Part shown: piece by piece, positions 14,552 to 57,919 of the stretch
Layout of the letters: each line of letters starts with the position of its first letter
Numbering within the stretch: the stretch's first letter is position 1
From: Betaproteobacteria bacterium RIFCSPLOWO2_02_FULL_63_19
GTDB lineage: Bacteria; Pseudomonadota; Gammaproteobacteria; Burkholderiales; SG8-39
Length of the DNA: 64,000 bases
Direction of reading: 5' to 3'
NCBI GenBank assembly: GCA_001770415.1
Contig: MEQX01000024.1
Location: 10,983 to 74,982, forward strand
Made by a program: the position numbers and the translations under genes
Notes under the pieces: generated by a model
Told to the model about the DNA's origin: nothing
Seen by the model: the letters and a program-made list of their open reading frames with translations, nothing else
Databases searched by the model: none

Positions 14552-14572
14552 CAGAACGCTTGATCGATTCGC

Positions 14573-14600
14573 AGGCCGTGCTGGAATCGAACCAGCGGCC
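14573..14600 (-). repeat. Degenerate direct repeat of tRNA-Lys 3' half (candidate att relic); folds as a hairpin
   Basis: 24/28 identity to 32126-32153 in the same orientation; minus strand GCTGG-TTCGATT-CCAGC-ACGGCCT vs tRNA GCAGG-TTCGACT-CCTGC-ACGGCCT. Confidence 0.7.
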
Positions 14601-14633
14601 TGCGGGCGGTGATGCCGATACCTTCGTCAGAAC

Positions 14634-14996
14634 CTAGGACGTCTGTTCGCCCTCGGACGGTTCGTCTGCCGCCGGCATCTCGCTCGTTTCCCCGCAACCG
14701 GGATCGGCAAAGGTGATTTCCCAGTTCGACGAGTTTCCACGTTGCTTCATTATCACGTCGTATTGGGCGTCGGGAAGCAACTTGCCCTTGTCCTTGATCC
14801 CGCTGACCTCGAGGCAGGTGATGCGCAGTTCACCAGTACGCACATCGAACGTCGCCGTGGACTTGTCGGTCGAGTCGCCGGTCGTCGTGGGTTGCGTCGC
14901 CGGGTCACCCTCGCCGGGGCTCTGTGCGCCTGCCGTCGGCGAAAACATGATGGCGCAGGTCAGTGCGCAGATCGGTATCAATTGTCGTGTAGTCAT
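14634..14996 (-). CDS. Small secreted hypothetical protein (~120 aa)
   Basis: Likely start MTTRQLIPICALTCAIMFSPTAGAQ (signal peptide); Thr/Ser-rich linker; two Cys in the mature part. Confidence 0.6.
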   Translation of the reverse strand: MTTRQLIPICALTCAIMFSPTAGAQSPGEGDPATQPTTTGDSTDKSTATFDVRTGELRITCLEVSGIKDKGKLLPDAQYDVIMKQRGNSSNWEITFADPGCGETSEMPAADEPSEGEQTS

Positions 14997-15246
14997 GGCG
15001 CGACCTCCTATACATAGACATGGGGAACAGCCCTTACATTCATTCGAAACAATGAATGCGGACACAGGCTAATGGTTCCTTCGTTCCCGGGATCACGTCA
15101 AGGTACAAGTCCCAGCCACTTTCATCGTAGCGGGAAGTAGTTCACGAGATGCGCGCGTCTAACGGCACGCTCGTGCGACATAGTTCACGAAACGCTCAGG
15201 TCGAGTTCGTCAGCGACCTGCACTGCGGGTCGCCGCGCTGATCGGC

Positions 15247-16605
15247 TCAGCGTCGGGTGTCGATTCCGTAGGTGGGCAGTTTCTTTCGCCACCAATCTTC
15301 GGTGGAAAGGGGCTTGCCGTAACCGAGCATCTTGTCGAGTTTCACCAGAACTCGATTGAACACGCTCGTGCGCCTGACGAGCGCTTTGATGGTCCGAAAC
15401 ACGAGCGTGTTCGGCTTGTTCCAGGGGCAGACCGGAACGCAGATGCCGCAAGCGCCGCCCTTCGACTCGGCATAGGCCCAACAGACGGGCCAGCGGCCAT
15501 GCCAGGTCTTGTGACCCGGATTGACCCATTCTCCCGGTCGATCGAAACTGGGTTCCCGGTCTTTGCTGACGGCATCGACCGGGCACGCTTCGATACACCG
15601 GTCGCAGACCTTGCAGAACGCTTCGATACCGAAGTCCTGCGGTTGATCGAGTTCCAAAGGCAGATCGGTGATGATCTTGCAGATCCGGATCATCGTTCCC
15701 AGATCGGGATTGATCACCTTGTCGGCTCGGCACTGCTCGCCCAATCCGGCCTCGATCGCGAAAGGTCCGTTCGGGGCCGTGTCGTTGGACGAAGGAATGG
15801 CCGTATACCCCAGTACGCGTATGAACTCGGCCATGGGCGCCAACAGCTGGTCGATCCGGGAATACGTGAAGAACGGGCCCATCGAACCCACCGGATCCGG
15901 CGCGCAGCCGAACGCGTCGTAAGGCATCTCCAGCAGGAAAACGATCACGTAGCGGCATTTCTCCGGAATCACCCGCTTCTCGCCGGTTTCATAAGGCTTG
16001 TCGACGTCTTCGAAAACGACCTCCTTCCCGTCGCAGTCGCGGCTGTAGACATGGCGTTTGTCCAGCCCGGTGATGCCCACCCGCGCGGCGCCGAACTGGA
16101 TTCCTGCATGCTTTACGATCTGTGCCGCTTCGCGGGGACTGCCGCTGTAGCGAGACACGCCAAGCTTTTCCGGCGTCGGCAGGCCGGCGGTGAGCGGCGT
16201 CCATGACTTGAGTCCCCAATTGGGTATGTTCGGTCCGCGGCAGAATTCCGCCGTTGCCGCGCCCGCGCTTTCCGTCGCGACCGGGCCCGTCGGTGTGCCG
16301 TACGTTTGCCCGCGTGTATAGACGCTCTTGACCGCCGAGTAGAGGGCCACGTCCTTCAACGTATTCCCCGGCGTGTTTGTCTCGATTCCCTGCACCATTT
16401 TCTTGCGCGCCTTGGCGCGAACCTTGGCCTGAACACCCTCAGCGTAATATTGCCCGTAATACAACGCCGACTTGCGCTTATCGAATCTGCCGTAGGTCCG
16501 GTCGTCGATGAGCTTGGTCAAGGGACTCTTGAAGGTATTTCGATCACCCGTTGCATCGGCAGCGGGCGAAGGTTCCATAAATTGACGCTGGATTGAAACG
16601 TTCAT
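15247..16605 (-). CDS. rdhA: Reductive dehalogenase catalytic subunit (RdhA-like; corrinoid and 2x[4Fe-4S]), no TAT leader
   Basis: FCKVCDRCIEACP and CGICVPVCPWNK; AGLGEQCR..INPDLG..RICKIITDLPL; N-terminal RFDKR, PGNTLKDVAL, GSPREAAQIVK, VFEDVDKPYET..VIPEKC; RBS AGGAG. Confidence 0.88.
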   Translation of the reverse strand: MNVSIQRQFMEPSPAADATGDRNTFKSPLTKLIDDRTYGRFDKRKSALYYGQYYAEGVQAKVRAKARKKMVQGIETNTPGNTLKDVALYSAVKSVYTRGQTYGTPTGPVATESAGAATAEFCRGPNIPNWGLKSWTPLTAGLPTPEKLGVSRYSGSPREAAQIVKHAGIQFGAARVGITGLDKRHVYSRDCDGKEVVFEDVDKPYETGEKRVIPEKCRYVIVFLLEMPYDAFGCAPDPVGSMGPFFTYSRIDQLLAPMAEFIRVLGYTAIPSSNDTAPNGPFAIEAGLGEQCRADKVINPDLGTMIRICKIITDLPLELDQPQDFGIEAFCKVCDRCIEACPVDAVSKDREPSFDRPGEWVNPGHKTWHGRWPVCWAYAESKGGACGICVPVCPWNKPNTLVFRTIKALVRRTSVFNRVLVKLDKMLGYGKPLSTEDWWRKKLPTYGIDTRR

Positions 16606-16724
16606 CGCTTGAATCTCCTGATCGACGACATGCGCAAAACCTGCGAGCCCTCTCCCGATCCACCCCTCACGCGACCGGTCGCCGCGCGTCGGACGCTGCC
16701 CGCCGGCGTGACGGTGGCGCGGAC

Positions 16725-16758
16725 AAAAAAGCGGCCTCCTCCGAAGAACGCAAACCGC
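16725..16758 (-). terminator. Intrinsic-terminator-like hairpin in the rdhA upstream region
   Basis: Minus strand GCGGTTT..TTC-TTCG-GAG..GGCCGC followed by TTTTTT. Confidence 0.45.
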
Positions 16759-17081
16759 AGCATTTTGCTCCTTATTTCGAACAGCAGGGAAATCGATGCC
16801 GGCCCCGATCCTCGTCGCCGACCGCCAAATCCGCTCGTCCCCGTTCGCGCCGCGTAGCGCGGCCTCCCCCGGGGCCGATCGACACCGCGGCGTGCGCTAT
16901 GGGGTCGCCACGTCAGCGCGCAGTCATTCCTCGCCGGAGGCGGAAATTTGCGCAATTTTATTAGACAATTTCGCGGAAAGTCGCCTAAACTACCGAAAAG
17001 ACGATGGTTTGACGAGCTGATGGAGTTGTCCGCGCGTTCGATCCGCCGGCGGGCGCGAGACCTCATCGAAAGGAAACAGTC

Positions 17082-18062
17082 ATGCGCGCGCTGATTCGGT
17101 ATTTTTCCCTCGTTTTGCTTCTTGCGCTGCCGGCTTCGGCCGCATTTGCTGCTTCGGCCTACGTGCACAGCCTCTCGGGCACGCTCGCCGCGCGCGTGGG
17201 TCCGGGCCCGGCCATACCGCTCAAGATCGGCGACACCTTCGATCCCGGTGTCACGCTGGTCACCGGTGCAAACAGCGACGCGGTAGTCAAGTTCGAGGAC
17301 GGGCAGGTCATTACGCTGGCGCCGAATACGCAGTTTGCGGTGCGCGAGTACAACTACAACAAGCGCTCGGTGCGCGAGAGCAACGTCGTCTTCGCGCTGT
17401 TGCGAGGCGGCCTGCGCTTCGTCACCGGGGTCATCGGCGCGACCAACCGCAATGCGTTCAAGCTCAACGTCGGCACCGCGACCATCGGCGTGCGCGGCAC
17501 CGACGGCGTGGTCACTTATGACGATATCGCGAACATCATCACTGCGGCGACAAACGCCGGCGCTCTGCAACTGCAGAATCAGGGCTTCCTGACCGGCGTT
17601 GCATCCGGCCAGATTACCAGCGGGAGTCTCACTCGGGGTCAGACATATGCGAGCGTGGCGATTGCTCAAGCGACCCCGGACCTGACAGCGGCGATCAATT
17701 CGATAAACGCGAAGGCAATACCGATTAACACGCCGGTTGTGGTCGCCGCGTCCGCCCGTGCGGCGGCGGCGCAGGAGGCGGCGCGTATCGCGCAAGCGGC
17801 AGCTGACGCACCCGGCGCAACACAAGCCCAGCTTGAGCTGGCACAACGGGCTGCGCAACTGGCGCAGGACGCACTGAACACTGCGATCGCCGAGGCAGTA
17901 AACGCGTTCAACGCCGCGCAGGCCGGGGGCGGCCAGATTCCGGCGCCGCCGGCCCCGGTCGGCCCGGTCGAGACCGGACAGGCCGCAACAACGGGCCAGC
18001 AGGGGCGGCTGCAGAGCGTGATTGAACAGCTTCAGCCGCCGCCGAAGCCGCTGAGCCCGTAA
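17082..18062 (+). CDS. Secreted FecR-domain protein with Ala/Gln-rich helical and Pro-rich tail
   Basis: Signal peptide; VTGANSDAVVKFEDGQVITLAPNT, LLRGGLRFVTG, TATIGVRGT. Confidence 0.8.
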   Translation: MRALIRYFSLVLLLALPASAAFAASAYVHSLSGTLAARVGPGPAIPLKIGDTFDPGVTLVTGANSDAVVKFEDGQVITLAPNTQFAVREYNYNKRSVRESNVVFALLRGGLRFVTGVIGATNRNAFKLNVGTATIGVRGTDGVVTYDDIANIITAATNAGALQLQNQGFLTGVASGQITSGSLTRGQTYASVAIAQATPDLTAAINSINAKAIPINTPVVVAASARAAAAQEAARIAQAAADAPGATQAQLELAQRAAQLAQDALNTAIAEAVNAFNAAQAGGGQIPAPPAPVGPVETGQAATTGQQGRLQSVIEQLQPPPKPLSP

Positions 18063-18082
18063 GGGTCTGAGACGCACCTTTC

Positions 18083-18114
18083 GGCCCGCCGTACTCGTTG
18101 CGAGGCGGCGGGCC
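18083..18114 (+). terminator. GC-rich hairpin downstream of the FecR-domain gene
   Basis: GGCCCGCCG...CGGCGGGCC inverted repeat; no U-tract. Confidence 0.35.
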
Positions 18115-18469
18115 ATCGATCCACGTCGGTGTGGCGGAGGGCGCGAGTGTTCAAACGACTTGACTCGCAATTCTCCGCGCGGGTCTGGCTCTGTCAGCAT
18201 TGTCTTGTGACGTTTCAAGCGATCCGACAACGCGCGGCGCGTACACCCGAGTTCGACGGGCACGAAAGCGACCCGATCTATCCGGGCTTCACCTCGTGAG
18301 ACGCTCTCAATGCAACAGCAAGATATTCCCGGCGTTGTTCGCCCACCCGGTTCGGATACAATCCCCGGCAGTTCCCGGCGCGCCGCGCGAGGCGGGCGCA
18401 GACGATGGCTTTCGCGTGATTTGACTCGCGCCGGCTGACCGCCCCTGACCTGGCCTCCCGGGCGCTCAC

Positions 18470-19195
18470 ATGAAAAGGTCCGTTTCACTCCTCCTTCGGG
18501 CAGCATTTGTTTTCTCCTGCGTCGCCTTGCTGGCCTTTGCCGCCTGGCAGGCCAGCCTGCGCGGGCGCGCCGACCTGACGGCGCAGGGGCCGACTGCGCA
18601 GGTGGAGCGGTGGGCCCGAGGCGGCCGGATCGACTCGCTCCAACGCTGGAGACGCGCGGTGGACGGCCTGCGCGCGGCTCAGGCGCTGGTGCCGGGCGAA
18701 GCCGCGGTCTATGCATCGATGGCGCGCGCGTACTCGCTGGCGGCGATCTCCGCGCCAACGCCGTCAGCCGCAAGCGTGTACCGCGAGTTTTCGCTGCTGC
18801 ATTGGCGCCTCGTCACCATGCTTCGCCCGACCTGGCCGTACGGCTGGTCGGGGATTGCGACCCATACGTTCAACCTGGGTTACGCAGACGTCATGGGTGC
18901 GCTTTCGCGCGCGATGCGCTACGGTCCGTGGGAACCGGGCGTTCAGCTTTTTGCCTCACGCGTCGGGTTGTTACGCTGGGAGCTGCTCGACTCGACGCAG
19001 CGCGAGGAAGTGCGGCAGAACTGGCGCCGCACCGCGCAGCGCCAGGGTGAAGCGCTGGCGCGGATGGCCGTCGAACTGAAGCGCGAGCCGATACTGTGCG
19101 CCGAGGGCCTGCCTGGTATGCAGAAGCGGCTCCAATGCGACAAGCGCCGAAACGCGGCGCCGCGCAAACGCGCTGGAAACCGGATGACGCGATGA
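18470..19195 (+). CDS. VpsP-like polysaccharide biosynthesis / TPR-like protein
   Basis: N-terminal TM; RPTWPYGW...ALSRAMRYGPWEPGV pattern; coupled (ATGA) to an O-antigen ligase gene. Confidence 0.6.
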   Translation: MKRSVSLLLRAAFVFSCVALLAFAAWQASLRGRADLTAQGPTAQVERWARGGRIDSLQRWRRAVDGLRAAQALVPGEAAVYASMARAYSLAAISAPTPSAASVYREFSLLHWRLVTMLRPTWPYGWSGIATHTFNLGYADVMGALSRAMRYGPWEPGVQLFASRVGLLRWELLDSTQREEVRQNWRRTAQRQGEALARMAVELKREPILCAEGLPGMQKRLQCDKRRNAAPRKRAGNRMTR

Positions 19196-20691
19196 GGGCA
19201 GCGCACGAGCGCCGTAGCGCCGACGCCTGGGTGTTCGGCCTGTTCCTCGCGCTGCTCTTCTGGGCGCCGTTGCCGCTGGGGAGCGCGCGGCCCTGGGCCT
19301 GGACGATCCTCGAGCTCGGGATCTATTTCCTCGCCGCGTGCTGGCTCGCGCTGTGGGCGTTCGGCCGCGCGCGCGTTCGCGCGCCCTGCCGAGAGGCCTG
19401 GCCGGTGCTGACGTTGTTCGCGATATGGCTCGCGATCGTCGGTGTGCAGCTGCTACCACTGCCGCGCGAGATGGCGGAAATCATCTCGCCCGAATCGCTG
19501 CGCGTGTGGCTGGATGCGGGGCGCTTCGCCGAACGCGGCTATCCGGTGTCCACCGAGCCTGAGGCGACGACGGTGTTTCTGTTGAAGAGCCTCGCCTACG
19601 CGCTCGCGTTCTTTCTGACGCTGGTGCTCGCCGACCGGCGCGAACGGCTGAAGGCGCTCGCTTTCACGCTCGTCGCCTCGGGACTGCTGCAGGCGCTGTA
19701 CGCGAGCTTCGGGCATCTGCTGCAGCTGCAATACGAATTCGCCTTCACGCCGTTGAACCACGGCGATCGCGCGATCGGCACCTTCCGCAACCCGGACCAC
19801 CTGGCGGGGTACCTGGAACTCGCGCTCTCGGTGGGGATCGGCATGATGATCGGCACGCTGCGCGAACGCGCGCCGCGCACCTGGCGGCAGCGCTTGCGCG
19901 ACTGGGTGGGCTGGATGATCAGTCCGAGGATACTGCTGCGCCTCGTGCTCGTGGTGATGGTGATCGCGCTGGTGATGACGCGCTCGCGCGGCGGCAACGG
20001 GGCGTTCTTCGCCAGCATGCTCGTCGCCGGGGCGCTCGGCCTCGCGCTTTCGCGCCACGCGACGCGCTCGGTGGTGATTCTGATCGCGAGCCTGGTGGTG
20101 ATCGACGTATTCATCGTCGGCGCGTGGTTCGGCGTCGACAAGGTGATGCACCGCCTCGAACAGACCTCGCTCACGCGCGACGCCAGGGCGGTAGCGGGCA
20201 CCAGCGAGCAGTCGCTCGAGGAGCGTGGCGACCCGGCGCTATTCGCGCTGAACATGGCACGCGACTACCCGTGGCTGGGCAGCGGCGGCGGCACGTTCGC
20301 CAGCACGTTCATGAAGTACCGCACCGAGGAACTCGCGGGCGACTTCTACGTCAACGCCGCGCACAACGACTACGCGCAGTTCCTCGTGGAGACGGGCGTC
20401 ATCGGCCTCGCATTGATGGGCCTCGTTGTGCTGCTCTGTTTCGTCACCGCGCTGAAGGCACAGTACCAGCGCACCGACCCGCTCGCGCGCGGCGTCGCGT
20501 TCGGCGCCACGATGGGCATCGTCTCGCTGATGATCCACAGTTGGGTGGACTTCAACCTGCAGACCCCGTCGAACGCGCTCACTTTCGTCGTGGTACTGGC
20601 GATGGCGTGGCCGGCGGCGTACGTCGGGCGGCAGCGGCACGCGAGCGAGAGCGAGGAAGACCGCGCGGCAGCGGGAACGGCGCCAGGGTAA
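19192..20691 (+). CDS. O-antigen ligase / Wzy_C-family polymerase-like membrane protein
   Basis: GTFRNPDHLAGYL, TRSRGG, PWLGSGGGTF, AHNDYAQFLVETGVIG, HSWVDFNLQTPSN. Confidence 0.85.
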   Translation: MRAAHERRSADAWVFGLFLALLFWAPLPLGSARPWAWTILELGIYFLAACWLALWAFGRARVRAPCREAWPVLTLFAIWLAIVGVQLLPLPREMAEIISPESLRVWLDAGRFAERGYPVSTEPEATTVFLLKSLAYALAFFLTLVLADRRERLKALAFTLVASGLLQALYASFGHLLQLQYEFAFTPLNHGDRAIGTFRNPDHLAGYLELALSVGIGMMIGTLRERAPRTWRQRLRDWVGWMISPRILLRLVLVVMVIALVMTRSRGGNGAFFASMLVAGALGLALSRHATRSVVILIASLVVIDVFIVGAWFGVDKVMHRLEQTSLTRDARAVAGTSEQSLEERGDPALFALNMARDYPWLGSGGGTFASTFMKYRTEELAGDFYVNAAHNDYAQFLVETGVIGLALMGLVVLLCFVTALKAQYQRTDPLARGVAFGATMGIVSLMIHSWVDFNLQTPSNALTFVVVLAMAWPAAYVGRQRHASESEEDRAAAGTAPG

Positions 20692-20744
20692 CTGCACCGT
20701 TCCGGGCGGGCGTGCGCCTCGTCCCGACCGAGGGCGGCGGGCCG

Positions 20745-22385
20745 CTATTCCTTGGCGGAATACTCGTGCGGGATGTACGGAGCGCGCTCGTACGCGGGCG
20801 CGTACGGCGTGTGCTCGCGCGCCTTGGCACGATCCTTCTCGCGCCCCATGCGGTCGCTGCCGCCCAGCCAGTAGGGCTTCAAGCCGCGGCTTCGCCACCA
20901 GATCTCGGGCGCCGCCTTGGCGCTCCAAAGATCGCATCTCACGCAGCGTCGGGCTTCCTCCGTCGCTTCGCCGTCGGAGTAGCCGCGCTCGGCGAGTTCG
21001 AATCCACGTGCCCGCGACTCCGGCGGGAGTTCGCTCATCGAAACGCAACCCTTGCCCTGCGGATGGATGTCGGGGTGGTAATCCATTTCCTCTCCCGCTT
21101 CGGGCGCCAGTATTTCCGCGATGTCGCCGCTGCCCCCGAGGTAGCGGTCGATCTCCTGCGCGGCCGATCTCCCCTGCGCGATCGCCTTGATCACATTGAG
21201 CGGTCCGAGCACGACGTCTCCGCCGGCGAATACGCCTTCGCGGCTGGTCTTCAACGATCCGTCGGCTACGGCGATGGTCCCCTCGGCACCCCTGGCCAGT
21301 CCCCACGCGTCGGAGACCCCGGGGGTCTGACCGATCGCCGCCATGATCGTATCGGCGGCGATGGCATAGTCGCTCCCGGGCACGGGCTGCACGGCCGCCC
21401 GTCCGCTCGCATCCGCCTGTCCGAGCTGCATGCGCTGCAACCAGAGTTTGAGTGCGCTGCCGTCGCGCTCGATGCGCAGCGGAGAGGTCAGGAACTCGAC
21501 CTTCACGCCTTCGGCCTCGGCCGCACGCATCTCGAAGTCGTAAGCCGGCATCTCCTTACGGCCGCGGCGGTACAGAATGCGCACGTCTTGGGCGCCCAGC
21601 CGCAGCGCGGTGCGCGCGCAATCGACTGCGACGTTTCCTGCGCCGATGACCGCGACGCGTTTCCCGACCGTGGGGCGGCGGTTCTGTTCGACGCCCAGGT
21701 TGGCTTCCTTGAGAAACTGCACGGCTTTCCAGACGCCGGGAAGATCCTCGCCGGCGATCTCGAGGTCCCGCGCGATGCAGGTGCCGACCGCCAGGAACAC
21801 CGCGTCGTAGCCTGCGCGCTTGAGTTCGTCCAGATCGTCGACGCGCTGATTGCATTTCACGTCGACGCGGTGCGCGGTGATCATCGCGATCTCCTCGTCG
21901 AGCGCCTCGCGCGGAAGCCGGTTCGGCGGTATCCCGATTCGCAGCTGTCCCCCCGGCTTCGGCTGTGCCTCGAATACGGTGACCTCGTGCCCGCAGCGCT
22001 TGCCGAGATAGTAGGCCGCGGTCAATCCGGCCGGGCCCGAACCGACGACCGCCACACGCTTCCCGGTTGCGGCGGCGACCGCTTCGCCCCAGCGCTCTTT
22101 CCATACTCCGGTGTCCTTTTCGACGGCGGCGCGCTTGATGGCGTTGATCGCCACCGGCGCTTCCCACAGTGCGCGGCGGCACTCGGGCTCGCACGGCCGG
22201 TAACAGACGTATCCGCAGACCGCGGGGAACGGAATGCGCTCGCGCACGACTGCCGCCGCTTCCCCGAATTTTCCCAGCGCTGCATACCCGATGTAGCGGG
22301 GAATATCGATTCCCGCCGGACACCCCTCGACACAAGGCGCCCGCTGCCGTCCGCCGCCGTACGACTTTCCACTATGGTTTTCCAT
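20745..22385 (-). CDS. GltD/DPD-like NAD(P)H:FAD oxidoreductase with N-terminal Fe-S domain
   Basis: CVEGCPAGIDIP, CGYVCYRPCEPECRR, VVGSGPAGL, VIGAGNVAVDCAR, YRRGRKEMPA, GVFAGGD, EARRCVRC. Confidence 0.88.
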   Translation of the reverse strand: MENHSGKSYGGGRQRAPCVEGCPAGIDIPRYIGYAALGKFGEAAAVVRERIPFPAVCGYVCYRPCEPECRRALWEAPVAINAIKRAAVEKDTGVWKERWGEAVAAATGKRVAVVGSGPAGLTAAYYLGKRCGHEVTVFEAQPKPGGQLRIGIPPNRLPREALDEEIAMITAHRVDVKCNQRVDDLDELKRAGYDAVFLAVGTCIARDLEIAGEDLPGVWKAVQFLKEANLGVEQNRRPTVGKRVAVIGAGNVAVDCARTALRLGAQDVRILYRRGRKEMPAYDFEMRAAEAEGVKVEFLTSPLRIERDGSALKLWLQRMQLGQADASGRAAVQPVPGSDYAIAADTIMAAIGQTPGVSDAWGLARGAEGTIAVADGSLKTSREGVFAGGDVVLGPLNVIKAIAQGRSAAQEIDRYLGGSGDIAEILAPEAGEEMDYHPDIHPQGKGCVSMSELPPESRARGFELAERGYSDGEATEEARRCVRCDLWSAKAAPEIWWRSRGLKPYWLGGSDRMGREKDRAKAREHTPYAPAYERAPYIPHEYSAKE

Positions 22386-22408
22386 AAGTCATCCCCATGA
22401 TCAACGCG

Positions 22409-22627
22409 CTACCACGCCGTCACCATACGGCGCTCGTGAACCGACACCACCTGGATCGCATCCTCGGGACATTCCACCTCGCAGAGGAAACAGCTCTGGC
22501 ATTCCCGGAGGTATTTGATGTAGGCCTTCTTTGTCGACGAATCGAGCCTTATGACGTCCAGCGGGCACACGTCGACACACACGTTGCACCCTATGCACAG
22601 CTTAGGGTCGATTACTCGGATGCCCAT
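22409..22627 (-). CDS. 2x[4Fe-4S] ferredoxin (AprB-like)
   Basis: MGIRVIDPKLCIGCNVCVDVCP...CQSCFLCEVECP; overlaps the end of the upstream flavoprotein gene. Confidence 0.85.
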   Translation of the reverse strand: MGIRVIDPKLCIGCNVCVDVCPLDVIRLDSSTKKAYIKYLRECQSCFLCEVECPEDAIQVVSVHERRMVTAW

Positions 22628-24360: not shown

Positions 24361-24362
24361 GT

Positions 24363-26021
24363 CTACTCCTTTGCCTGCCGTACCGACAGAAACCGCTGCA
24401 CGAGATCGAGCCTGTTGACCTTGTTGCTATCGAGTCGGGGAAACTCGTCCATGAGGAGCACCTCCTCGGGAATCTTGTAGGACGCGATGTTCTTGCTGCG
24501 CAGGAACGCATCGAACTCTTCCGGGACGACATCCACGCCTGTCCGGGGTATCACGAATGCGCAGGGTACCTCGCCGAGCACCGGGTGCGGAACGCCGACC
24601 ACTGCGGCTTCGAGCACCTTGGGGTGGCGGCACAGTATGGACTCGATCTCCGCCGGGTGGACCTTGTTGCCGCCGCGGATAATGACCTGCTTCTTGCGCC
24701 CCAGTAGCGAGAGGTTGCCCTGGGCGTCGATACCGGCGAGATCCCCGGTGCGGAACCATCCTTCGCGGCCGAGTTCTCCCCAGGCGCGACGCGTGGCCTC
24801 GAGGTCACGGAAATATCCGGAACTGGTGCCTGGGCCCCGGACCCACAGCTCGCCGACTTCTCCCGCAGGAACTTCCTGATTCGTCTCGTCGACGAGCTTC
24901 ACTTCGATTCCCGGCAGCGCGCGACCCACCGACCCGCCAAGGCGAATCTCGCGCGGATCGTCCAATGCCGCCTGCGCGATGGATACCGTTTCCATGCTGC
25001 CGTAGGCCGGCGCCATCACGCATCCGAGCTTCGCTTCGGCTTCCTGCGCCACCGAAGGCAACAGCGCCGCGGTTCCGGTTCGGATCACTCGCAGCGAACT
25101 CAGATCGTAGCGCGATAGATCCGGGTGCTCCAGGAGTCGCAGCAGTATCGCCGGAACGGTACCCATGAAGCTCACGCGCTCGCGCTCGATCAATTCGAGG
25201 ATCGTCTCCGCCGCCATCGATTCCGACAGCACCATCCGGCATCCGAGTTGGGCCGCGATCAGCCAGGCCATCGCGCCGGCGCCACCGCCCACCGGGGCAA
25301 AGATCCCGACCACGTCCTCCCGAGTGAGTTTCAGTCGTGATGCTATTCCCGATCCAATCAAGACTTGAGCGCCCTCGGGCCACTCGCAGACTTTCGGTTC
25401 GCCGGTGCTGCCGCTGGAGAGCGAAAGCAGAGAAACCTCGTCCGGCCCATAACGGGTCTGGTCCAGGCAGTCGGGTCGAATCTCCGGATCTGCACGCCGC
25501 TGCATCAGGTCGTTCAGCGATATTGCGCCGGCCGGAACCCGGTCCCCCGACACGAGCAAGTGCGGCTGCGCTTGCGAGCGGTCTTCATCGCGGATGCTTG
25601 CCATCATCTCCAGGTAGTCGAATCCCCGGAATTCGTCCACCAGCAGCACGGCCTTGGGATCGAGGTACCGGAACATGGGCCCCATCTCTGACTGACGCCA
25701 CATGATCGGTGCGAATGCCGCCAGCAGACCTGCTTTCTTCAACGCGATCCGGACCAGCAGATTCTCGACGCCGTTCGGAAGCTGGATCAGGACAAGGTCG
25801 TCGCGCTTTAGCCCGAGGTCCAGCAACCCCAACGCGAGCAGATCGGACTGATTCTTGACCTGGGCCCAGGTGAGCCGGCTCTGACGGTCCGACATGGCTT
25901 CGCCGTCCGGAACGTCCGTCGCGTGGCGCTCGAGCGCGCGGACCATCGTGTCGGGCGACCACAAGCCCCGTTCGAGATATTCCCGAACCATCTCCTGCGG
26001 CATGCGCGTTGGTTTCGACAC
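24363..26021 (-). CDS. AMP-dependent acyl/aryl-CoA ligase (ANL superfamily; DhbE/cyclohexanecarboxylate-CoA ligase-like N-terminus)
   Basis: SSGSTGEPK, YGSME, WFRTGDL, GRKKQVIIRGG, YKIPE. Confidence 0.88.
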   Translation of the reverse strand: MSKPTRMPQEMVREYLERGLWSPDTMVRALERHATDVPDGEAMSDRQSRLTWAQVKNQSDLLALGLLDLGLKRDDLVLIQLPNGVENLLVRIALKKAGLLAAFAPIMWRQSEMGPMFRYLDPKAVLLVDEFRGFDYLEMMASIRDEDRSQAQPHLLVSGDRVPAGAISLNDLMQRRADPEIRPDCLDQTRYGPDEVSLLSLSSGSTGEPKVCEWPEGAQVLIGSGIASRLKLTREDVVGIFAPVGGGAGAMAWLIAAQLGCRMVLSESMAAETILELIERERVSFMGTVPAILLRLLEHPDLSRYDLSSLRVIRTGTAALLPSVAQEAEAKLGCVMAPAYGSMETVSIAQAALDDPREIRLGGSVGRALPGIEVKLVDETNQEVPAGEVGELWVRGPGTSSGYFRDLEATRRAWGELGREGWFRTGDLAGIDAQGNLSLLGRKKQVIIRGGNKVHPAEIESILCRHPKVLEAAVVGVPHPVLGEVPCAFVIPRTGVDVVPEEFDAFLRSKNIASYKIPEEVLLMDEFPRLDSNKVNRLDLVQRFLSVRQAKE

Positions 26022-26095
26022 GATGGCTTCCTCAAACCCGAAACCATAGTAAGGTCATTGCAGAACGTCAAATTTATTCTCAGTAGCTATTACAT

Positions 26096-26110
26096 TTACA
26101 TATGTATATG
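26096..26110. promoter_or_regulatory. AT-rich dyad between the divergent CoA-ligase and LysR genes (candidate LTTR site)
   Basis: TACATATGTA palindrome (26097-26106) inside a T-N11-A frame, in an AT-rich spacer. Confidence 0.35.
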
Positions 26111-26153
26111 CTTAGGCCAGCATCCACAATGGGCTTACGCAAAGGGGACCGGC

Positions 26154-27065
26154 GTGAACTTGCATCAACTCAAACTGTTCTGCGCGGTCGTGGAAACGGG
26201 AAGCTTCGCCCTCGCAGGAGAGCGACTTCACATCACGCAGCCGGCATTGAGCATCCAGGTCCGACGCCTTGAACTGGGTCTGCGCACGGTGCTATTGCGA
26301 CGAAACAAGAAGGGACCGATGCTCACCGACGCGGGCAAGGTCGTCTACGATGCGGCGAAAGCGATCTTCGAGCGCGAGGACGGGCTGCAACGACAACTCG
26401 AGGAAATCCGCTCAGGAGAAAGAGGCACGCTGGCCGTTGCGATAAGTCCGACCGGCGTGCTGTATTTCGCCTCGCAGTTGATTCAGGCGTTCAAGCGCCG
26501 CTTTCCTGCCGCCGCCGTGATACCGACGATCGGAACGCGCGAGGAAGTCCTTGAACGGGTGGCGCAAGGAAGCGCCGATCTGGGTTTCGAATGGGGCCCG
26601 ATTACCCATCCGCGGCTGGTCCACTCGGCTCTTATCCGGGCTCGTTTTCTTGTGGTCACGAGTCCTGAACACGCCTTCGCCGATAAGAAGGTCGTCCGGG
26701 TGTCGGATTTCGTGCACGAACCCTTGGTCGATCTGGACCACGGCCCGGGAACGCCATCCTTCGTCGAGCAAGCTCTTCTGAAGGCGGGAATTCGGCCGAA
26801 GACCGTGCTTCGCGTGCCATCGATCGACGCGATGAAAAGCCTCATTGAAGCGAATCTGGGCGTCGGAATGCTGTCGGACCTTTCGGTCGAGCGCGAGGTT
26901 GGCCTGGGACTTCTGAAACCACTGCCGTTGCAAGGGTTTCCTCTCGCCCGAGATCTCGTCGTCGTGTCACGCAAGGACGGCCCGATTTCGCGGGCGACCG
27001 CCTCATTCCTGGAATTCGCCGCGAGCTACCGTGCCCCGGTGTCTGCGCGGCCCCGGAGTCGCTAA
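26154..27065 (+). CDS. LysR-family transcriptional regulator
   Basis: GTG start; NLHQLKLFCAVVETGSFALAGERLHITQPALSIQVRRLE HTH. Confidence 0.92.
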   Translation: MNLHQLKLFCAVVETGSFALAGERLHITQPALSIQVRRLELGLRTVLLRRNKKGPMLTDAGKVVYDAAKAIFEREDGLQRQLEEIRSGERGTLAVAISPTGVLYFASQLIQAFKRRFPAAAVIPTIGTREEVLERVAQGSADLGFEWGPITHPRLVHSALIRARFLVVTSPEHAFADKKVVRVSDFVHEPLVDLDHGPGTPSFVEQALLKAGIRPKTVLRVPSIDAMKSLIEANLGVGMLSDLSVEREVGLGLLKPLPLQGFPLARDLVVVSRKDGPISRATASFLEFAASYRAPVSARPRSR

Positions 27066-27080
27066 CCTCGAAACCCCGCG

Positions 27081-29942
27081 CTAGGACTTCGCCGCCCGCA
27101 GCGCGGTTCGTATCCTTTCCGGCGTGATGGGCAACTCCTTGACCCAGACACCGGTGGCGTTGGCGATCGCATGCGCGACGGCGCCGAGCACCGGCAGCGT
27201 GGTCCCTTCGCCGATTTCCTTTGCGCCGTACGGCCCCTCGGGTTCGTAGGATTCGACGAGTCCGCTGAAGATATCCGGCGCATCCTTGATGGTCATCACC
27301 AGGTAGCCGTGAAGGTTCGGATTCATCATGCGGCCTTTTTCATCGAACAGGATTTCCTCCATGATCGTTTCGCCGGCCCCCATGACGATGGCGCCTTCCA
27401 CTTGGCCGCGGGCCATCATGGGATTGATCGGCACGCCGCAATCATGGTAATCGGTGAATTGTTCGATCTTGACCTTGCCGGTCTCGAGATCCACCGACGC
27501 CTCGCAGACCGAACTGCCGAACGAATAGGCGGGGCTGGTGCCGACGGTGGCACCCTTGTAGTCGCCGCCCAGCCCGTCGCGCGGTTTGTACCAGCCTGTT
27601 CCCACCAGGGGACCGTTGTCATTGAAGTACTTCCGCGCCACTTCTTCCCACGGCACGCTGCGGCCGTTCGCGGCGTACATCCTGGCATCCCGCGCCACCA
27701 CCTCGGACGGATCGCACTCCAGCATGGCTGCCGCAATGGGCTTCATGCGCTCCACGACAGCTTGCCCGGCGCGCGATACGGCGTGTCCTCCCATCAGCGT
27801 CACGCGCGAGGAATAGGCGCCGAGATCGATCGGGGAGATGTCGCTGTCCTCGGCCCGCACGCGCATCCGCGACACCGGTATGCCGAGTGCTTCGGCGCAC
27901 ATCTGCGCCATGACCGTCTCCGCGCCCTGCCCGATTTCCGCCACCCCTATCATCAGGATCGCCGCCATGCCGTCCTCGGTGACGCGCACGATGGCATTGG
28001 CGTGCGGAAAGATCGACTTTTTCTGAAAATGTTCCGGCCCTTTTTCATGCGACATCTGCACCTGGCCCCGATAGATGGCGTAGCCGGCGCCCGAGACGAA
28101 ACCGCCGCAACCGATCCCGATGCCTTGCCCCTTGGGCAGTTTGCCGTACTTTTCCTTCCATCCGGACTTCTTCTGTACGGCATCGAGCGTGGCCCGGAAT
28201 TCGCAACTCTGGATGTCGAGATCGTTGACGGTCCGCGTGTTCGGGTCCATGGAATTGCGTCTGCGGATCTCGATCGGATCGATCCCCATCTCATCCGCCA
28301 TCATGGTGAGGAGACACTCGAAGGCAAAGCGCGGCTGCGGCACGCCGTGGCCCCGGAATGCGCCGCAGGCGGGTTTGTTGGTCACGACCCGAATTCCCTT
28401 GTACTTGAAATTTGGAATGTGATAGAGCGTCGGCATCATGTTGCCGGCGTAATACGTCGTGGCCACGCCGAACGAGGCGTAAGCGCCGCCGTCGAGATGG
28501 ATCTCGCTTTCGAATGCCTTGATCTTGCCGTTGCGATCGAGGCCCAGTTTGTACTTCATGTACTGCTTGTGGCGCCCGCGACCGAACAGCATCATCTCTT
28601 CGCGCGAGTAGACCATCTTGACGGGACGGCCCGTGATCTTGCTGAGGATCGGCGCGCAAAGCTCCAGCGGTGAGGTGCCCGCCTTCGCTCCGAATCCGCC
28701 GCCGACGGTGGGGCGGATGACACGAATCCTGCCCAGCGGCAGGTGGAATACGTGAGCCAACATGTACTGGACATAATGCGGCGCCTGTGTCGAAGTGTAG
28801 AGCACCAACGTTCCGTCGCTCTCCCAGGTCGCAATGGACGCGTGCGGCTCCATCGGCTGCTGATGCGTGAGGTTGCCGACGAAGGTCTCTTCCTTCACGA
28901 AATCCGACTCGGCAAAGCCCTTTTCCACGTCGCCGTGCGCCTGATCGACGAAGGTGTTGATGTTGCCCCGATAGCGCTCGTGAATCAGTGGCGCATCTTT
29001 GGCGATCGCTTCGAAAGGATCGAGGATCGGCGGCAGTTCCATGTATTCCACTTCGATCAGCGAAAGCGCTTTTTCGGCTGTCTTCTCGTCGATCGCGGCA
29101 ACCGCGGCCACGCGGTCACCGACGTGGAGCACTTTCTTCTTGGACAGTACGTGTTCGTCGTAGCGGGCCGGTGAAACGCCGAAGCACTCATCCGGCACGT
29201 CCTCGCCGGTGATGACGGCGAGCACGCCGGGCAAGGCCATGGCTTTGCTGGTGTCGATGCGCTTGATGATGCCGTGGGCGATCGGCGAGCCGAGGATTTT
29301 GCCATGGGCCATGCGCGGCAGCGAAATGTCACCGGTGTAAAGCGCTCGTCCCATCGCCTTGTCCGCAGCATCCAGGCGCGGAATCGAGGCGCCGACACTC
29401 GCATAGCGTTCGTCTCCGACATAGCTGCCGTCGTCGGTTGCGGGAACCTCGCCCGATTTCTCGGCGCAGGTGCCGTCGCCCCGATAGTTCCCGCATCGCC
29501 GCACGGCACGCATAATTCCGAAGTAGCCCGTGCAGCGGCACAGATTGCCGGCCAAACCGTCCTTGATTTCCTCGATGCTCGGCTCCGGGTTCTTGTTCAG
29601 CAGCGCGATCGAGGACATGATCATCCCCGGCGTGCAATAGCCGCACTGGATGCCGCCCTCATTGACGAACGCCTTCTGGATCGGGGCAAGCTCGCCATCC
29701 TTCGCCACCCCTTCGATGGTCGAAATCTGTTTGTCCTCGGCTTCGCTGGCGAGCATCAGGCAGCTGTTGATCGGCGTGCCGTCGACCAGCACCGTGCAGG
29801 CACCGCAATCGCCCAGGTTGCAGCCCTTCTTGGTGCCGGTGAGGCCGAGCGTATCGCGCAGGACGTCGAGGAGCGTTTCTCCACCTTGCAGCGCGACTGG
29901 ATACGGCCGGCCGTTAATTTTCAGCGTGCGTGTGTTCGCCAT
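27081..29942 (-). CDS. Xanthine-oxidase-family molybdoenzyme: [2Fe-2S] subunit fused to 4-hydroxybenzoyl-CoA-reductase-alpha (HcrA)-like Mo subunit
   Basis: Start MANTRTLKING (TGATG overlap); GCNLGDCGACTV, QCGYCTPG, NLCRCTGY; then GGGFGAK, FRGHGVPQ, KLPKGQGIG, FVSG, GAYSSRVT, GAKEIGEG. Confidence 0.85.
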   Translation of the reverse strand: MANTRTLKINGRPYPVALQGGETLLDVLRDTLGLTGTKKGCNLGDCGACTVLVDGTPINSCLMLASEAEDKQISTIEGVAKDGELAPIQKAFVNEGGIQCGYCTPGMIMSSIALLNKNPEPSIEEIKDGLAGNLCRCTGYFGIMRAVRRCGNYRGDGTCAEKSGEVPATDDGSYVGDERYASVGASIPRLDAADKAMGRALYTGDISLPRMAHGKILGSPIAHGIIKRIDTSKAMALPGVLAVITGEDVPDECFGVSPARYDEHVLSKKKVLHVGDRVAAVAAIDEKTAEKALSLIEVEYMELPPILDPFEAIAKDAPLIHERYRGNINTFVDQAHGDVEKGFAESDFVKEETFVGNLTHQQPMEPHASIATWESDGTLVLYTSTQAPHYVQYMLAHVFHLPLGRIRVIRPTVGGGFGAKAGTSPLELCAPILSKITGRPVKMVYSREEMMLFGRGRHKQYMKYKLGLDRNGKIKAFESEIHLDGGAYASFGVATTYYAGNMMPTLYHIPNFKYKGIRVVTNKPACGAFRGHGVPQPRFAFECLLTMMADEMGIDPIEIRRRNSMDPNTRTVNDLDIQSCEFRATLDAVQKKSGWKEKYGKLPKGQGIGIGCGGFVSGAGYAIYRGQVQMSHEKGPEHFQKKSIFPHANAIVRVTEDGMAAILMIGVAEIGQGAETVMAQMCAEALGIPVSRMRVRAEDSDISPIDLGAYSSRVTLMGGHAVSRAGQAVVERMKPIAAAMLECDPSEVVARDARMYAANGRSVPWEEVARKYFNDNGPLVGTGWYKPRDGLGGDYKGATVGTSPAYSFGSSVCEASVDLETGKVKIEQFTDYHDCGVPINPMMARGQVEGAIVMGAGETIMEEILFDEKGRMMNPNLHGYLVMTIKDAPDIFSGLVESYEPEGPYGAKEIGEGTTLPVLGAVAHAIANATGVWVKELPITPERIRTALRAAKS

Positions 29943-30820
29943 CACTTTTCTCCTGTTGCGCGCGCTTGAGCGGTCAGTAGGGCACGCCGGGTCAAGGTTC
30001 CGACGAGTTCTCGCCTGTACTCGGCCGATCCGCGCAGGTCCGAGATCGGCAGCGCTGCCGCTATGGCAGCTTGCGCCGCGCGGTCGAGACCGTTCTTGTC
30101 CAGGACCTTGCCTGCCAGCGCGGTGTGCGCGTCGGGTACAAGCGTCGGCTTGCCGGCAACTGCGGAAAGACACACGCGCGCCTGCGCGACGCTGCCGTCC
30201 GCCTTCAATTGCAGGCTCGCGGCCACCGCCGCCACGGCGACGGAATTCGCTTCGCGCAGACCGAATCGCGCATAGCCTGCGCCAAACCTCGCCGGGGAAT
30301 GGGGAACCAGCACTTCGGTCAGGACCTCATCGTCGCGTAGTACCGTTTCCCGCGGGCCGACAAAGAAGGCTTCGATCGGCATGTTGCGCACTCCCGATGG
30401 CGACCACAGGTTCAGCGTGGCGTTACTGACCGCCAGCACCGGCGGCAGGTCGGCACACGGCACGGCACCGACGATGTTCCCGCCAACGGTTCCCAGATTT
30501 CGAACCTGCGGACTCGCCATTTCCCGGGCGGCGTCGCGGACGACCGGACATTTCTCGCGGATGACGTCGGACGTCGCCACCTCATTGAGTGTGGCGAGCG
30601 CTCCGATTCTCACGCGGTCATCGACGGACGCAATCCCCCGCAATGCCGCGATCCTGTTGAGGGAAATCACGTGACCGGCTCCGTACCGGTCGGTCTTGAG
30701 GTCAACGATCAGGGAAGTTCCCCCGGCCAGAAAGCGCGCCTGTTTTCCCCATCGAGCGATCATCTCCGCCGCTTGTTCAAGCGTGGAGGCGTCGTGAAAC
30801 TCAGCTTCGGACAAGATCAC
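29942..30820 (-). CDS. FAD-binding medium subunit (CoxM/CutM-type) of a xanthine-oxidase-family enzyme
   Basis: LAGGTSL, ASPQVRNLGTVGGNI, DLRGSAEYRR; no Cys-rich insertion. Confidence 0.88.
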   Translation of the reverse strand: MILSEAEFHDASTLEQAAEMIARWGKQARFLAGGTSLIVDLKTDRYGAGHVISLNRIAALRGIASVDDRVRIGALATLNEVATSDVIREKCPVVRDAAREMASPQVRNLGTVGGNIVGAVPCADLPPVLAVSNATLNLWSPSGVRNMPIEAFFVGPRETVLRDDEVLTEVLVPHSPARFGAGYARFGLREANSVAVAAVAASLQLKADGSVAQARVCLSAVAGKPTLVPDAHTALAGKVLDKNGLDRAAQAAIAAALPISDLRGSAEYRRELVGTLTRRALLTAQARATGEK

Positions 30821-31062
30821 GGCCTTCCTCCTACAGTATCCAAGAAAGACAGCGCCGCACCGTTCAGCTCAGCTCGGGCGTGCTGCGCAACAGTTCCCTG
30901 CGCCGCCTGCAGGCGAACGCAGCGTCACAGGCTGACACGAGAGAAATGCCGTCGAATTGACCTGCATCAAGCCGAGTCGGGGCGCTCCGACCGGCCGAGC
31001 GCTCGACGGTACACGGTACACTTACCCGCCGCACAACGTCTTCCAACGCACTCCAACCAGCG

Positions 31063-31998
31063 ATGTCCGATACACTCGCCGCCCTGCTCCCGGTCTTCCT
31101 GCTGATTGTCACCGGCTTCGTGCTGCGCCGCAGCCTGCTGTCGGAGGAGTCGCACTGGACCGGCATCGGGCAGCTCGTGTATTTCGTGATGCTTCCGGCG
31201 CTGTTGATCGACACGCTGGCGCGCGCGGATTTCGCACGCCTGCCGGTCGGCAGCATCGGCGGTGCCCTTCTCGCGGCGATTGCGGCGATGGCAGCGATCT
31301 GCCTCGCGCTGCGACGGCCGCTCGCCAGTCGGCTCCAGATCGACGGCGCGGCGTTTACGTCGCTGTTTCAGGGTGCAACGCGCTGGAATGCCTTTGTCGC
31401 ACTGGCGATCGCGGCGGGCCTGTTCGGCAACCACGGCGTCGCCCTCGTGTCGGTTGCGATGCTGGCGATGATCCCGGTGCTCAACGTGCTCAACGTGCTC
31501 AACGTCTGGGTGCTGGCGCGCTACGCCGCCGCAAAGCGGCCCGACTGGCGCACCGTGGTCGTCGCGTTGATCCGCAACCCGCTCATCTGGTCGTGCGCAG
31601 CGGGCATTGCACTGAACCGGATCGAGATCGCAATCCCGCCGCCCGTGCATGTCTTCGCCGAAGCGCTGGGGCGTTCATCGCTCGCGCTGGCGCTGTTGAT
31701 GGTCGGCGCGGGGCTGCGTCTCACGAGTCTGCTGCAGCCTTCGCCGGCCGCGCTGCTCGCGAGCGTGCTCAAGCTCGTCGTGCTGCCGGCGCTGGCGATC
31801 GGCGCAGGGCACCTGATGGGATTGAACGCAGCCGGCCTCGGCGTAGTCGCGATCACGTCGTCCGTGCCGACAGCTCCCGTGGCCTACGTGCTGGCGCGGC
31901 AGATGGGCGGCGATGCCGAGCTGCTGGCGCAGATATTGACGATGCAAACCGTGCTCGCCGCGCTGACCATACCGATCATGATTTCGCTTGCCCTATGA
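31063..31998 (+). CDS. AEC (auxin efflux carrier / malonate-malate permease) family transporter
   Basis: 10 TM; LVYFVMLPALL, RWNAFVALA, NPLIWSCAAG, AYVLARQMGGDAEL. Confidence 0.88.
   Translation: MSDTLAALLPVFLLIVTGFVLRRSLLSEESHWTGIGQLVYFVMLPALLIDTLARADFARLPVGSIGGALLAAIAAMAAICLALRRPLASRLQIDGAAFTSLFQGATRWNAFVALAIAAGLFGNHGVALVSVAMLAMIPVLNVLNVLNVWVLARYAAAKRPDWRTVVVALIRNPLIWSCAAGIALNRIEIAIPPPVHVFAEALGRSSLALALLMVGAGLRLTSLLQPSPAALLASVLKLVVLPALAIGAGHLMGLNAAGLGVVAITSSVPTAPVAYVLARQMGGDAELLAQILTMQTVLAALTIPIMISLAL
31477..31503 (+). repeat. 9-bp tandem repeat x3 (GTGCTCAAC) inside the AEC gene
   Basis: Encodes VLN-VLN-VLN. Confidence 0.9.
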
Positions 31999-32081
31999 AC
32001 GCTGTCGAGCAGAACAGCAGGGCGTCGCCGGCGTCGTTCTCGGTCGCGCCGAATGTCCGCGGAGGGCTTCGCTACGGGCCG

Positions 32082-32114
32082 AAAAAGTAAGGGCCCAGCC
32101 TAAGCTGAACCCTT
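32082..32114 (-). terminator. Rho-independent terminator after tRNA-Lys
   Basis: Minus strand AAGGGTTCAGC-TTAG-GCTGGGCCCTT then ACTTTTT. Confidence 0.8.
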
Positions 32115-32121
32115 GATTTTT

Positions 32122-32197
32122 TGGTAGGCCGTGCAGGAGTCGAACCTGCGACCAACGGATTAAAAGTCCGCTGCTCTACCAACTGAGCTAACGACCC
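32122..32197 (-). tRNA. tRNA-Lys(UUU)
   Basis: GGGTCGTTAGCTCAGTTGGTAGAGCAGCGGACTTTTAATCCGTTGGTCGCAGGTTCGACTCCTGCACGGCCTACCA; 76 nt, encoded CCA; follows cpoB as in other proteobacteria. Confidence 0.97.
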
Positions 32198-56646: not shown

Positions 56647-56647
56647 G

Positions 56648-57535: not shown

Positions 57536-57919
57536 GCGTGTATGTGCGGCTACCGAAGGGGTCGCCGGGGGGCCGTATGGTATCACGCGCCAACCGGTCT
57601 GGGAGGCGACGCGGCCCGCTACGACCCCGGCCCCCTGCAACATACCCCAGGTGTCTCTCGCGCACCGCCGGCGCCGAAGGGTGTACTGCGCGGCGCTTGG
57701 GGCGATCCGGCAGCCCGGCCGTGCGCTCGCGCCCGCGCGTCTCGAGCAGTAGACGCCGGCTCACGATCTGCCTTAATATGGCGCCGGTGTGACATTTGGG
57801 CTTTATTTTCTAGAAAAATAGGTATTGAGGGGTGGGATGTCGGGTCCGACGGGGATCCGTTTCTTCCAGCGGCGTCCTTCCCAATTACTGCGTCAGTCCA
57901 ATCATCCGGGGCCGAAGTC

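Follow-up and report, generated by a model that had tools for sequence, protein, structure and literature searches.

Does a fragment of a transfer RNA (tRNA) gene that lies far from its intact parent mark the end of a single genomic island, or is it a junction left behind in a region that has since been rebuilt? The question is raised by a 64,000-nucleotide stretch of contig C24 (GenBank MEQX01000024.1), called the window here, from Betaproteobacteria bacterium RIFCSPLOWO2_02_FULL_63_19, whose draft assembly of 4.65 Mb (92% complete) we refer to as G000. Within the window, ARAGORN calls an intact tRNA-Lys(UUU) gene on the minus strand at 32122-32197, 80 nucleotides (nt) 3' of cpoB at the end of the tol-pal cluster, and a displaced, imperfect copy of its 3' half and 3' flank lies on the same strand at 14550-14600. 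An earlier note, made from the sequence alone, had read this copy, which we call the relic, as one side of an attachment site (att) duplication bounding an old island. Our analysis indicates that the relic is probably a decayed attR-type scar of an old integration at tRNA-Lys, and that the interval between the two is an immobile patchwork.

Origin of the displaced copy

The core 28-mers of the relic (14573-14600, AGGCCGTGCTGGAATCGAACCAGCGGCC) and of the tRNA gene (32126-32153, AGGCCGTGCAGGAGTCGAACCTGCGACC) are identical at 24 of 28 positions, both read on the same strand, and the relic lies in direct orientation 17.5 kb downstream of the tRNA 3' end, which reproduces what the earlier note had described. 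The repeat is longer than was noted then, since local alignment extends it without gaps to 51 nt, with 40/51 positions identical (78%) between 14550-14600 and 32103-32153. The copy at the tRNA, on the minus strand, takes in the variable loop, the T-arm, the 3' acceptor strand, ACCA and 19 nt of 3' flank. Homology stops 23 nt past the acceptor strand, within the flank that carries the native intrinsic terminator of tRNA-Lys (32082-32114, minus strand; AAGGGTTCAGC-TTAG-GCTGGGCCCTT and then a T-run). Two of the four core differences form a paired swap in the T-stem, GCAGG/CCTGC to GCTGG/CCAGC, and we could thus reproduce the compensatory change claimed before. The acceptor strand ACGGCCT, as had also been claimed, does not differ between the relic and tRNA-Lys, but it is not unusual: most relatives have this acceptor strand as standard in tRNA-Lys(UUU), which makes it a lineage trait and not a peculiarity of this locus.

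GC-rich DNA yields many imperfect repeats of 25-35 nt at 70-80% identity, and any tRNA T-arm scores 17-22 of 28 against the relic core. It could therefore be argued that the relic is a GC-rich intergenic hairpin that resembles a T-arm by chance, but this explanation is effectively refuted. When the relic was compared with all 64 tRNAs of G000, tRNA-Lys(UUU) was the best match (24/28) and tRNA-Val(CAC) the second (22). Scanning the whole of G000 with the tRNA 28-mer returned matches of at least 24/28 only in tRNA-Lys genes (the gene itself and two for tRNA-Lys(CUU)), in the relic (24) and in an orphan fragment on contig C22 (26), while the number of such sites expected by chance, computed from base composition over both strands of the whole assembly, is 0.001 per genome. 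A strict T-arm motif occurs outside tRNA genes only four times in G000, and the three occurrences besides the relic are obvious tRNA 3' fragments. Because tRNA-Lys is the best match among 64 tRNAs, 0.001 such matches are expected and the homology continues beyond the tRNA, sequence comparison puts the derivation of the relic from tRNA-Lys beyond reasonable doubt.

The relic does not form a full cloverleaf. ARAGORN called no tRNA at 14.5 kb, and the Rfam model RF00005 matches only at model positions 43-63, the T-arm, with 13.9 bits against a threshold of 29. No further copy was found in the window at up to 3 mismatches, and genome-wide there is, in this draft assembly, only the one further orphan on C22. 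The relic is thus not a many-copy element of the repetitive extragenic palindromic (REP) or miniature inverted-repeat transposable element (MITE) kind. Of the two outcomes that the earlier note had named as speaking against its reading, neither was found in full: the 28-mer does not recur genome-wide as a REP-like element, and in relatives the interval is not retained at tRNA-Lys in a form that lacks the repeat.

Islands integrated at tRNA genes were reportedly described by Williams in 2002 as carrying a regenerated tRNA gene at one side and a displaced 3' fragment at the other. The geometry at our locus is of this kind, and the question becomes what the DNA between the two copies represents.

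A mosaic interval between the relic and tRNA-Lys

The interval was compared with three near relatives from public assemblies, namely R (L032, 91-93% DNA identity), S (L038/L040, 81-87% DNA identity to the window) and T (L045, about 80%). We also used L037, which is the same strain as G000 (99.4% identical), and the congeners G001-G003, among which G001 is the closest genome, yet more distant than R, S and T. The gene comparison in G001-G003 covered the genes other than hyp143, the AEC transporter and the TRAP/TTT genes of the left flank. An empty-site survey covered cpoB and DUF2723 in 40 relatives and the 20 kb 3' of cpoB in 20 relatives; its metagenome part consisted of 80 cpoB loci, with at most 8.7 kb available downstream of each.

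Starting from the relic, the first unit of the interval is a small conserved hypothetical gene from the open reading frame (ORF) list (14634-15065, minus strand; maximal ORF of 143 amino acids (aa), called product of 104 aa), which is convergent on the DUF2723 gene of the left flank and has homologues at 72-77% identity in R, S and T-type contigs. Pfam matches identify the remaining units. An RdhA-like reductive dehalogenase family gene follows at 15247-16605 (minus strand), and next comes a block of FecR-domain, hypothetical (hyp241) and Wzy_C genes at 16867-20744 (plus strand), which constitutes a 3.9-kb indel. The rest, 20745-31998, is an 11-kb catabolic module running from a GltD-like reductase through a ferredoxin, an FAD flavoprotein, a CoA ligase, a LysR regulator, a Mo-hydroxylase and a CoxM-like subunit to an AEC transporter. 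The Mo-hydroxylase, of the XDH family, is a fused 2Fe-2S/Mo-hydroxylase. L037 independently confirms the assembly over the segment from GltD through AEC and tRNA-Lys to cpoB.

These units were observed to vary independently. R is collinear with G000 over the relic junction and lacks 12109-14023 and the FecR-hyp241-WzyC block. In T the order is DUF2723, small gene, Rdh, GltD, and in S it is TRAP-GT2-DUF2723, small gene, GltD to AEC, with no Rdh gene. The homology of S to the window ends at the AEC stop codon (31991), where CoA-transferase genes take the place of tRNA-Lys and cpoB; no tRNA was found in the parts of the S contigs examined. The FecR-WzyC block is missing in R, S and T alike at exactly 16867-20744, and is the most recent insertion. 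The Rdh gene is present in G000, R and T and absent from S, and no orthologue was found in G001-G003 (best identity at most 32%). The 11-kb module is retained as a unit in R and in S, at another locus in the latter, and behaves as a portable unit. In G001, GltD-FAD2-ligase-LysR (73-85% aa identity) are nested between neighbours from G000 contig C81, and XDH-CoxM (70% and 53%) between neighbours from contig C70. Since the modules vary independently in R, S, T and G001, the interval is a mosaic of at least four units with separate histories.

The AEC transporter has its nearest named homologues outside the lineage among alphaproteobacteria (57-61%), and its gene contains, at 31467-31505, a 9-nt unit GTGCTCAAC in three tandem copies that gives VLNVLNVLNV in the protein. 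A cluster paralogous to FecR/WzyC lies elsewhere on the contig, at C24:111909-115084.

The interval contains no visible means of movement, in agreement with the earlier note. A six-frame genome search that read through stops found no tyrosine integrase domain (PF00589) on C24, with nine matches elsewhere in G000; remnants of this domain were found beside other tRNA fragments, on C52 and C64. Pfam identified no recombinase in the interior ORFs, serine recombinases being checked through per-ORF Pfam scans only. Likewise, no repeats bounding the sub-modules were detected besides GC-rich chance matches.

Composition was proposed before as a check on the island, and it returned no island-wide signal. 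At both proposed ends tetranucleotide usage does not stand out from the rest of the genome, and there is no step at either boundary. Only 16-25 kb is mildly atypical, at the 90-95th tetranucleotide percentile with a GC fraction of 0.66-0.675, and the FecR-hyp241-WzyC block is the sole compositionally atypical part of the interval. A compositional difference from the host supports, but is not required for, an island integrated at a tRNA gene. The strongest tetranucleotide deviation in this part of the contig falls at 57000-68000 (95-98th percentile), well outside the interval.

On the earlier reading, 14601-32121 would be one old tRNA-Lys island that no longer has its integrase and that is by now either immobile or mobilised in trans. 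The att geometry is correct for it, and in none of the 40 relatives or the 80 metagenome loci do genes of the interval follow tRNA-Lys. The metagenome loci contained neither integrases, orphans nor orthologues of interval genes in the downstream DNA available, the sole interval-like match being a GltD-family paralogue, 39% identical, at one locus. The absence of any recombinase remnant, the lack of a compositional step at either end and the presence of at least four independently varying modules nevertheless speak against a single island. So does the S block, which runs leftward over the position of the relic and whose tRNA-proximal end is without tRNA-Lys. Together with evidence from the flanks given below, this makes a single island unlikely. 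Of the earlier claim, the part that stands is a genuine displaced fragment with att geometry; one 17.5-kb island is not supported.

We favour the reading, drawn from sequence comparison, that the scar is a junction left by an old recombination event within a wider plastic zone 3' of tRNA-Lys, and not the edge of a coherent 17.5-kb island. A tRNA-fragment repeat alone is no proof that all the DNA up to the tRNA is one island. For the RdhA-like gene and the aromatic-acid-type module, a horizontal origin has to be argued gene by gene and not from their being "island cargo".

tRNA-Lys as a recurrent target

The adjacency of cpoB and tRNA-Lys is conserved across the family and in 36 of the 80 metagenome loci. 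In G002, of the same genus as G000, a displaced tRNA-Lys 3' half (25/28, direct) lies 5.8 kb downstream of the orthologous gene, and the islet so delimited carries hemerythrin, TctC and a pyridoxal phosphate (PLP) enzyme. G004 has two displaced direct copies, 1.5 kb (28/28) and 2.4 kb (25/28) downstream of tRNA-Lys, with nucleotidyltransferase and PIN-domain genes of toxin-antitoxin type as cargo. An integrase is absent from all of these islets in G002 and G004. Same-strand 28-mer pairs also occur in G014 and G030 (44 kb apart), where the second copy is an orphan or a full tRNA gene. As relatives carry similar displaced 3' halves 3' of the orthologous tRNA-Lys (G002 and G004, possibly G014 and G030), the tRNA-Lys gene adjoining cpoB is a recurrent target with the behaviour of a hotspot. 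It is one more well-documented case of a tRNA gene as a long-lived recombination hotspot.

The G001 contig ends inside the T-stem of tRNA-Lys (G001:C165:1-60, locus L024). Several other contigs from metagenome-assembled genomes (MAGs) and metagenomes stop at tRNA-Lys or at most about 20 nt past it, which fits a repeat or a strain-variable junction at this point.

Orphan fragments of tRNA-Lys occur away from the gene as well. The C22 orphan (22833-22860) matches tRNA-Lys at 26/28, and its homology covers about 70 nt (56/70) between the anticodon loop and a point 33 nt beyond the acceptor. It occupies an intergenic gap flanked by a CMD-family gene and an IclR regulator, in an ordinary metabolic locus with no mobility genes, far from any tRNA-Lys. 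An unrelated betaproteobacterial MAG (L031:4820-4900, JANMSV010000275.1) also carries an orphan tRNA-Lys 3' half, with the GGCC and discriminator-G variants considered in the next section; a T-run terminator follows it and there is no tRNA gene within 8 kb.

In all of these sibling orphans (on C22, in G002, the two in G004, and in L031) the 5' boundary falls in or next to the anticodon loop (TAATCCG) and the native terminator flank of tRNA-Lys is retained, and the same flank is kept after tRNA-Lys itself in the congener G002. Judged by sequence, such a fixed anticodon-loop boundary is what a site-specific integrase crossover would be expected to produce. A tandem duplicate of tRNA-Lys made without an integrase, which lost its 5' half and was moved 17.5 kb by later insertions, could also leave a fragment that carries the gene's own terminator flank, as the relic does. 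Neighbouring tRNA-Lys genes do exist in relatives: G033 has two of them 191 bp apart, and G008 and G021 have UUU+CUU pairs. This origin is nonetheless very improbable, since the 3' half alone survives in the relic and in every sibling orphan, the fixed 5' boundary of the siblings would not be a product of random decay, and the paired T-stem swap means that the relic was not copied recently from the gene as it is now.

Instability at this site is not confined to the interval. The left flank consists of a GT2/GtrA and DUF2723 (TMEM260-like) gene pair identified by Pfam (11388-14551, plus strand). Among the 40 relatives this pair is found only in G004, G007 and G010, of three other genera, and is absent from G001-G003, though the closer contigs S and T do carry it. 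The pair is nested, in G010 and G004, among genes with orthologues on G000 contig C93. Conversely, the genes that follow tRNA-Lys in five genera map to 31.6-50.6 kb of G000 contig C108, where the ancestral neighbour now resides. The left flank is thus non-ancestral at the tRNA-Lys locus and, taken with the displacement to C108, it shows that the plastic zone reaches beyond the scar, which is internal to it. In R, the 1.9-kb deletion 12109-14023 takes the GT2 C-terminus (the GtrA part) and most of DUF2723, so that the glycosylation pair is a pseudogene there.

For a single island these findings cut both ways. The integrase-less islets with the same repeat in G002 and G004 and the removal of the ancestral downstream neighbour to C108 are in its favour, but the left flank being equally non-ancestral, and the failure to find an empty site, are against it.

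In order to account for these observations, we propose that a tyrosine integrase-mediated insertion into tRNA-Lys would have left an attR-type scar at the far end of the insert. The event would be old, the recombinase having been lost and the scar having drifted to 78% identity. The DNA between the tRNA and the scar would since have been reworked into its present contents, namely the small gene, the RdhA-like gene, the recent FecR-WzyC block and the 11-kb module. We infer both the integrase as the maker of the scar and this order of events. The scar would thus have outlived its element, while the genes it encloses have separate histories.

In the established model, a regenerated tRNA gene and a displaced fragment flag the ends of inserted DNA (Islander, PMC4383910; PMC9897764). 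Our locus resembles islands of the Islander/TIGER class (PMC4383910) in that an intact tRNA at one end is matched by a direct-repeat 3' fragment at the opposite end, which lies 3' of the gene, in that related genomes show repeated targeting of the same tRNA, and in its metabolic cargo. It differs from them in having no mobility gene, in a repeat with only 78% identity across 51 nt, in the lack of any known empty site, in an interior that is a patchwork of native composition, and in having non-ancestral DNA on the far side of the scar as well. Degraded or "anchored" islands and tandem accretion offer a further likeness, with scars that outlast the recombinase, later indels inside the zone, and two successive scars in G004; here, however, only one scar is detectable on C24, and successive accretion in G000 is something we infer. 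The relic can also be likened to partial tRNA genes mis-called as tRNAs (attR sites; PMC9897764), which are 3' fragments from mobile-element integration, although it falls below ARAGORN and Rfam calling and lacks CCA and the discriminator A. Taken together, the locus fits the known behaviour of tRNA-linked islands and their decay, and is an ordinary fossil.

Several points weigh against reading the relic as a decayed integration scar. In contrast to its siblings, it has no clean anticodon-loop boundary, its homology fading within the variable loop. Its part from T-loop to acceptor is recognisable in G000 only, plus L037 of the same strain. No match of 19/28 or better to the tRNA-like part is present in the R, S and T spacers, though the gene junction is the same, and these spacers share with G000 only the short motif GCAGsCCGC..GG. 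The scar may be older than the splits from R, S and T, with decay or deletion in the other lineages, or it may have originated within the lineage of G000; a later origin in that lineage is possible because R, S and T have the same gene junction without the relic. An orphan need not mark the end of an island, as the C22 fragment shows. The empty site that the earlier note had proposed to look for, tRNA-Lys joined to DUF2723, was not found in the 40 relatives or the 80 metagenome loci, and the relatives compared are draft MAGs or metagenome contigs throughout. What is kept in S and T is the junction of DUF2723 with the small gene, without tRNA-like sequence.

The hairpin and changes shared among orphans

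The earlier note had also pointed to a longer hairpin at the relic, lying between convergent genes. We could confirm it at 14570-14604, where an 8-bp outer stem (CGCAGGCC/GGCCTGCG), a 2-nt bulge, the 5-bp T-stem and a 7-nt loop make up a structure of 13 bp with folding energies of -30.2 kcal/mol on one strand and -25.5 kcal/mol on the other (z about -3.7). The genes that converge on it are DUF2723 (plus strand, ending at 14551) and the small conserved gene (minus strand, ending at 14634). The relic is like rho-independent terminators and REP hairpins in being a stable GC-rich hairpin between convergent genes, and unlike them in having no U-tract and not being multi-copy. An intrinsic terminator combines a GC-rich hairpin with a U-tract; here the hairpin is present, no U-tract follows it on either strand, and a consensus terminator scan gave no match at 14570-14604. 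The residual hairpin may serve as a transcript-end structure between the two genes.

The possibility that the hairpin is a conserved terminator of DUF2723 was considered and rejected, as G010 and G004 are without it and have a third membrane-protein gene directly after DUF2723. The relic therefore lies at a synteny breakpoint and is not a conserved operon terminator. The spacer of R carries a strong hairpin of -26 kcal/mol at the same junction, whose homology to that of the relic is ambiguous. The G000 and R hairpins can be aligned so as to differ by a compensatory change from A-U to G-C, but we do not uphold this reading, because an equally good alignment places the R hairpin elsewhere in the spacer. 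The G000 spacer has an extra 26 nt relative to R, and since these are bracketed by a TCGAT direct repeat, the shorter spacer of R could be a slippage deletion. Conservation of the hairpin in near relatives is thus not demonstrable.

Orphan fragments share certain substitutions. The discriminator A-to-G change is common to four orphans in three genomes (the relic, C22, the second G004 orphan and L031), and three of these four also have GGTC changed to GGCC, the second G004 orphan having GGCA. With these changes the variable region keeps its pairing to the 3' acceptor strand or pairs with it more strongly, and the C22 hairpin (C22:22790-22900; L030:9790-9900) is longer than that of the relic, with a 14-bp outer stem. 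The shared changes may reflect GC-biased drift in a hairpin that was already there, a shared att site borne by an element, or selection for a stable hairpin. This recurrence of hairpin-strengthening changes is a small unexplained pattern.

One could go further and suppose that the relic belongs to a small family of tRNA-Lys-derived hairpins kept for their function, be it as transcript-end structures, RNA processing sites or protein-binding sites, independently of islands. The shared discriminator and GGCC changes, which keep or strengthen the hairpin, would be in line with this, as would the location of both G000 orphans in intergenic DNA at gene 3' ends and the fold z-score. However, there are only two orphan copies in 4.65 Mb, no U-tract is present, and the tRNA-like part is absent at the same junction in R, S and T. 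An exact-pattern search for the relic hairpin in public metagenome and genome contigs gave no match, a looser orphan-type pattern matched one MAG, and the homology of the R hairpin is ambiguous. We consider such a family very unlikely. The broader idea, that betaproteobacterial tRNA-Lys 3' halves have been repeatedly remodelled to stable minihelix-like hairpins that are kept because they function at the RNA or DNA level (for instance as signals for transcript ends or for processing, or as decoys for recombinases), is a speculation to which we give little credence. A decayed integration scar is still the reading of the relic that we prefer.

A few other tRNA-like features were noted in G000. 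The 98-nt second "tRNA-Lys(ttt)" called by ARAGORN on C73 was rejected as a false positive, as it lies within coding sequence. In the window, the "tRNA-Ser(gga)" called at 58259-58346 is inside a 905-aa ORF (56558-59275) and without CCA, and is probably also a false positive. On contig C15, 16 tRNA genes of atypical sequence occupy 1.6 kb (C15:66735-68329) and look prophage- or island-borne, and a tRNA-Arg 3' fragment lies at C15:88354, 20 kb beyond this array.

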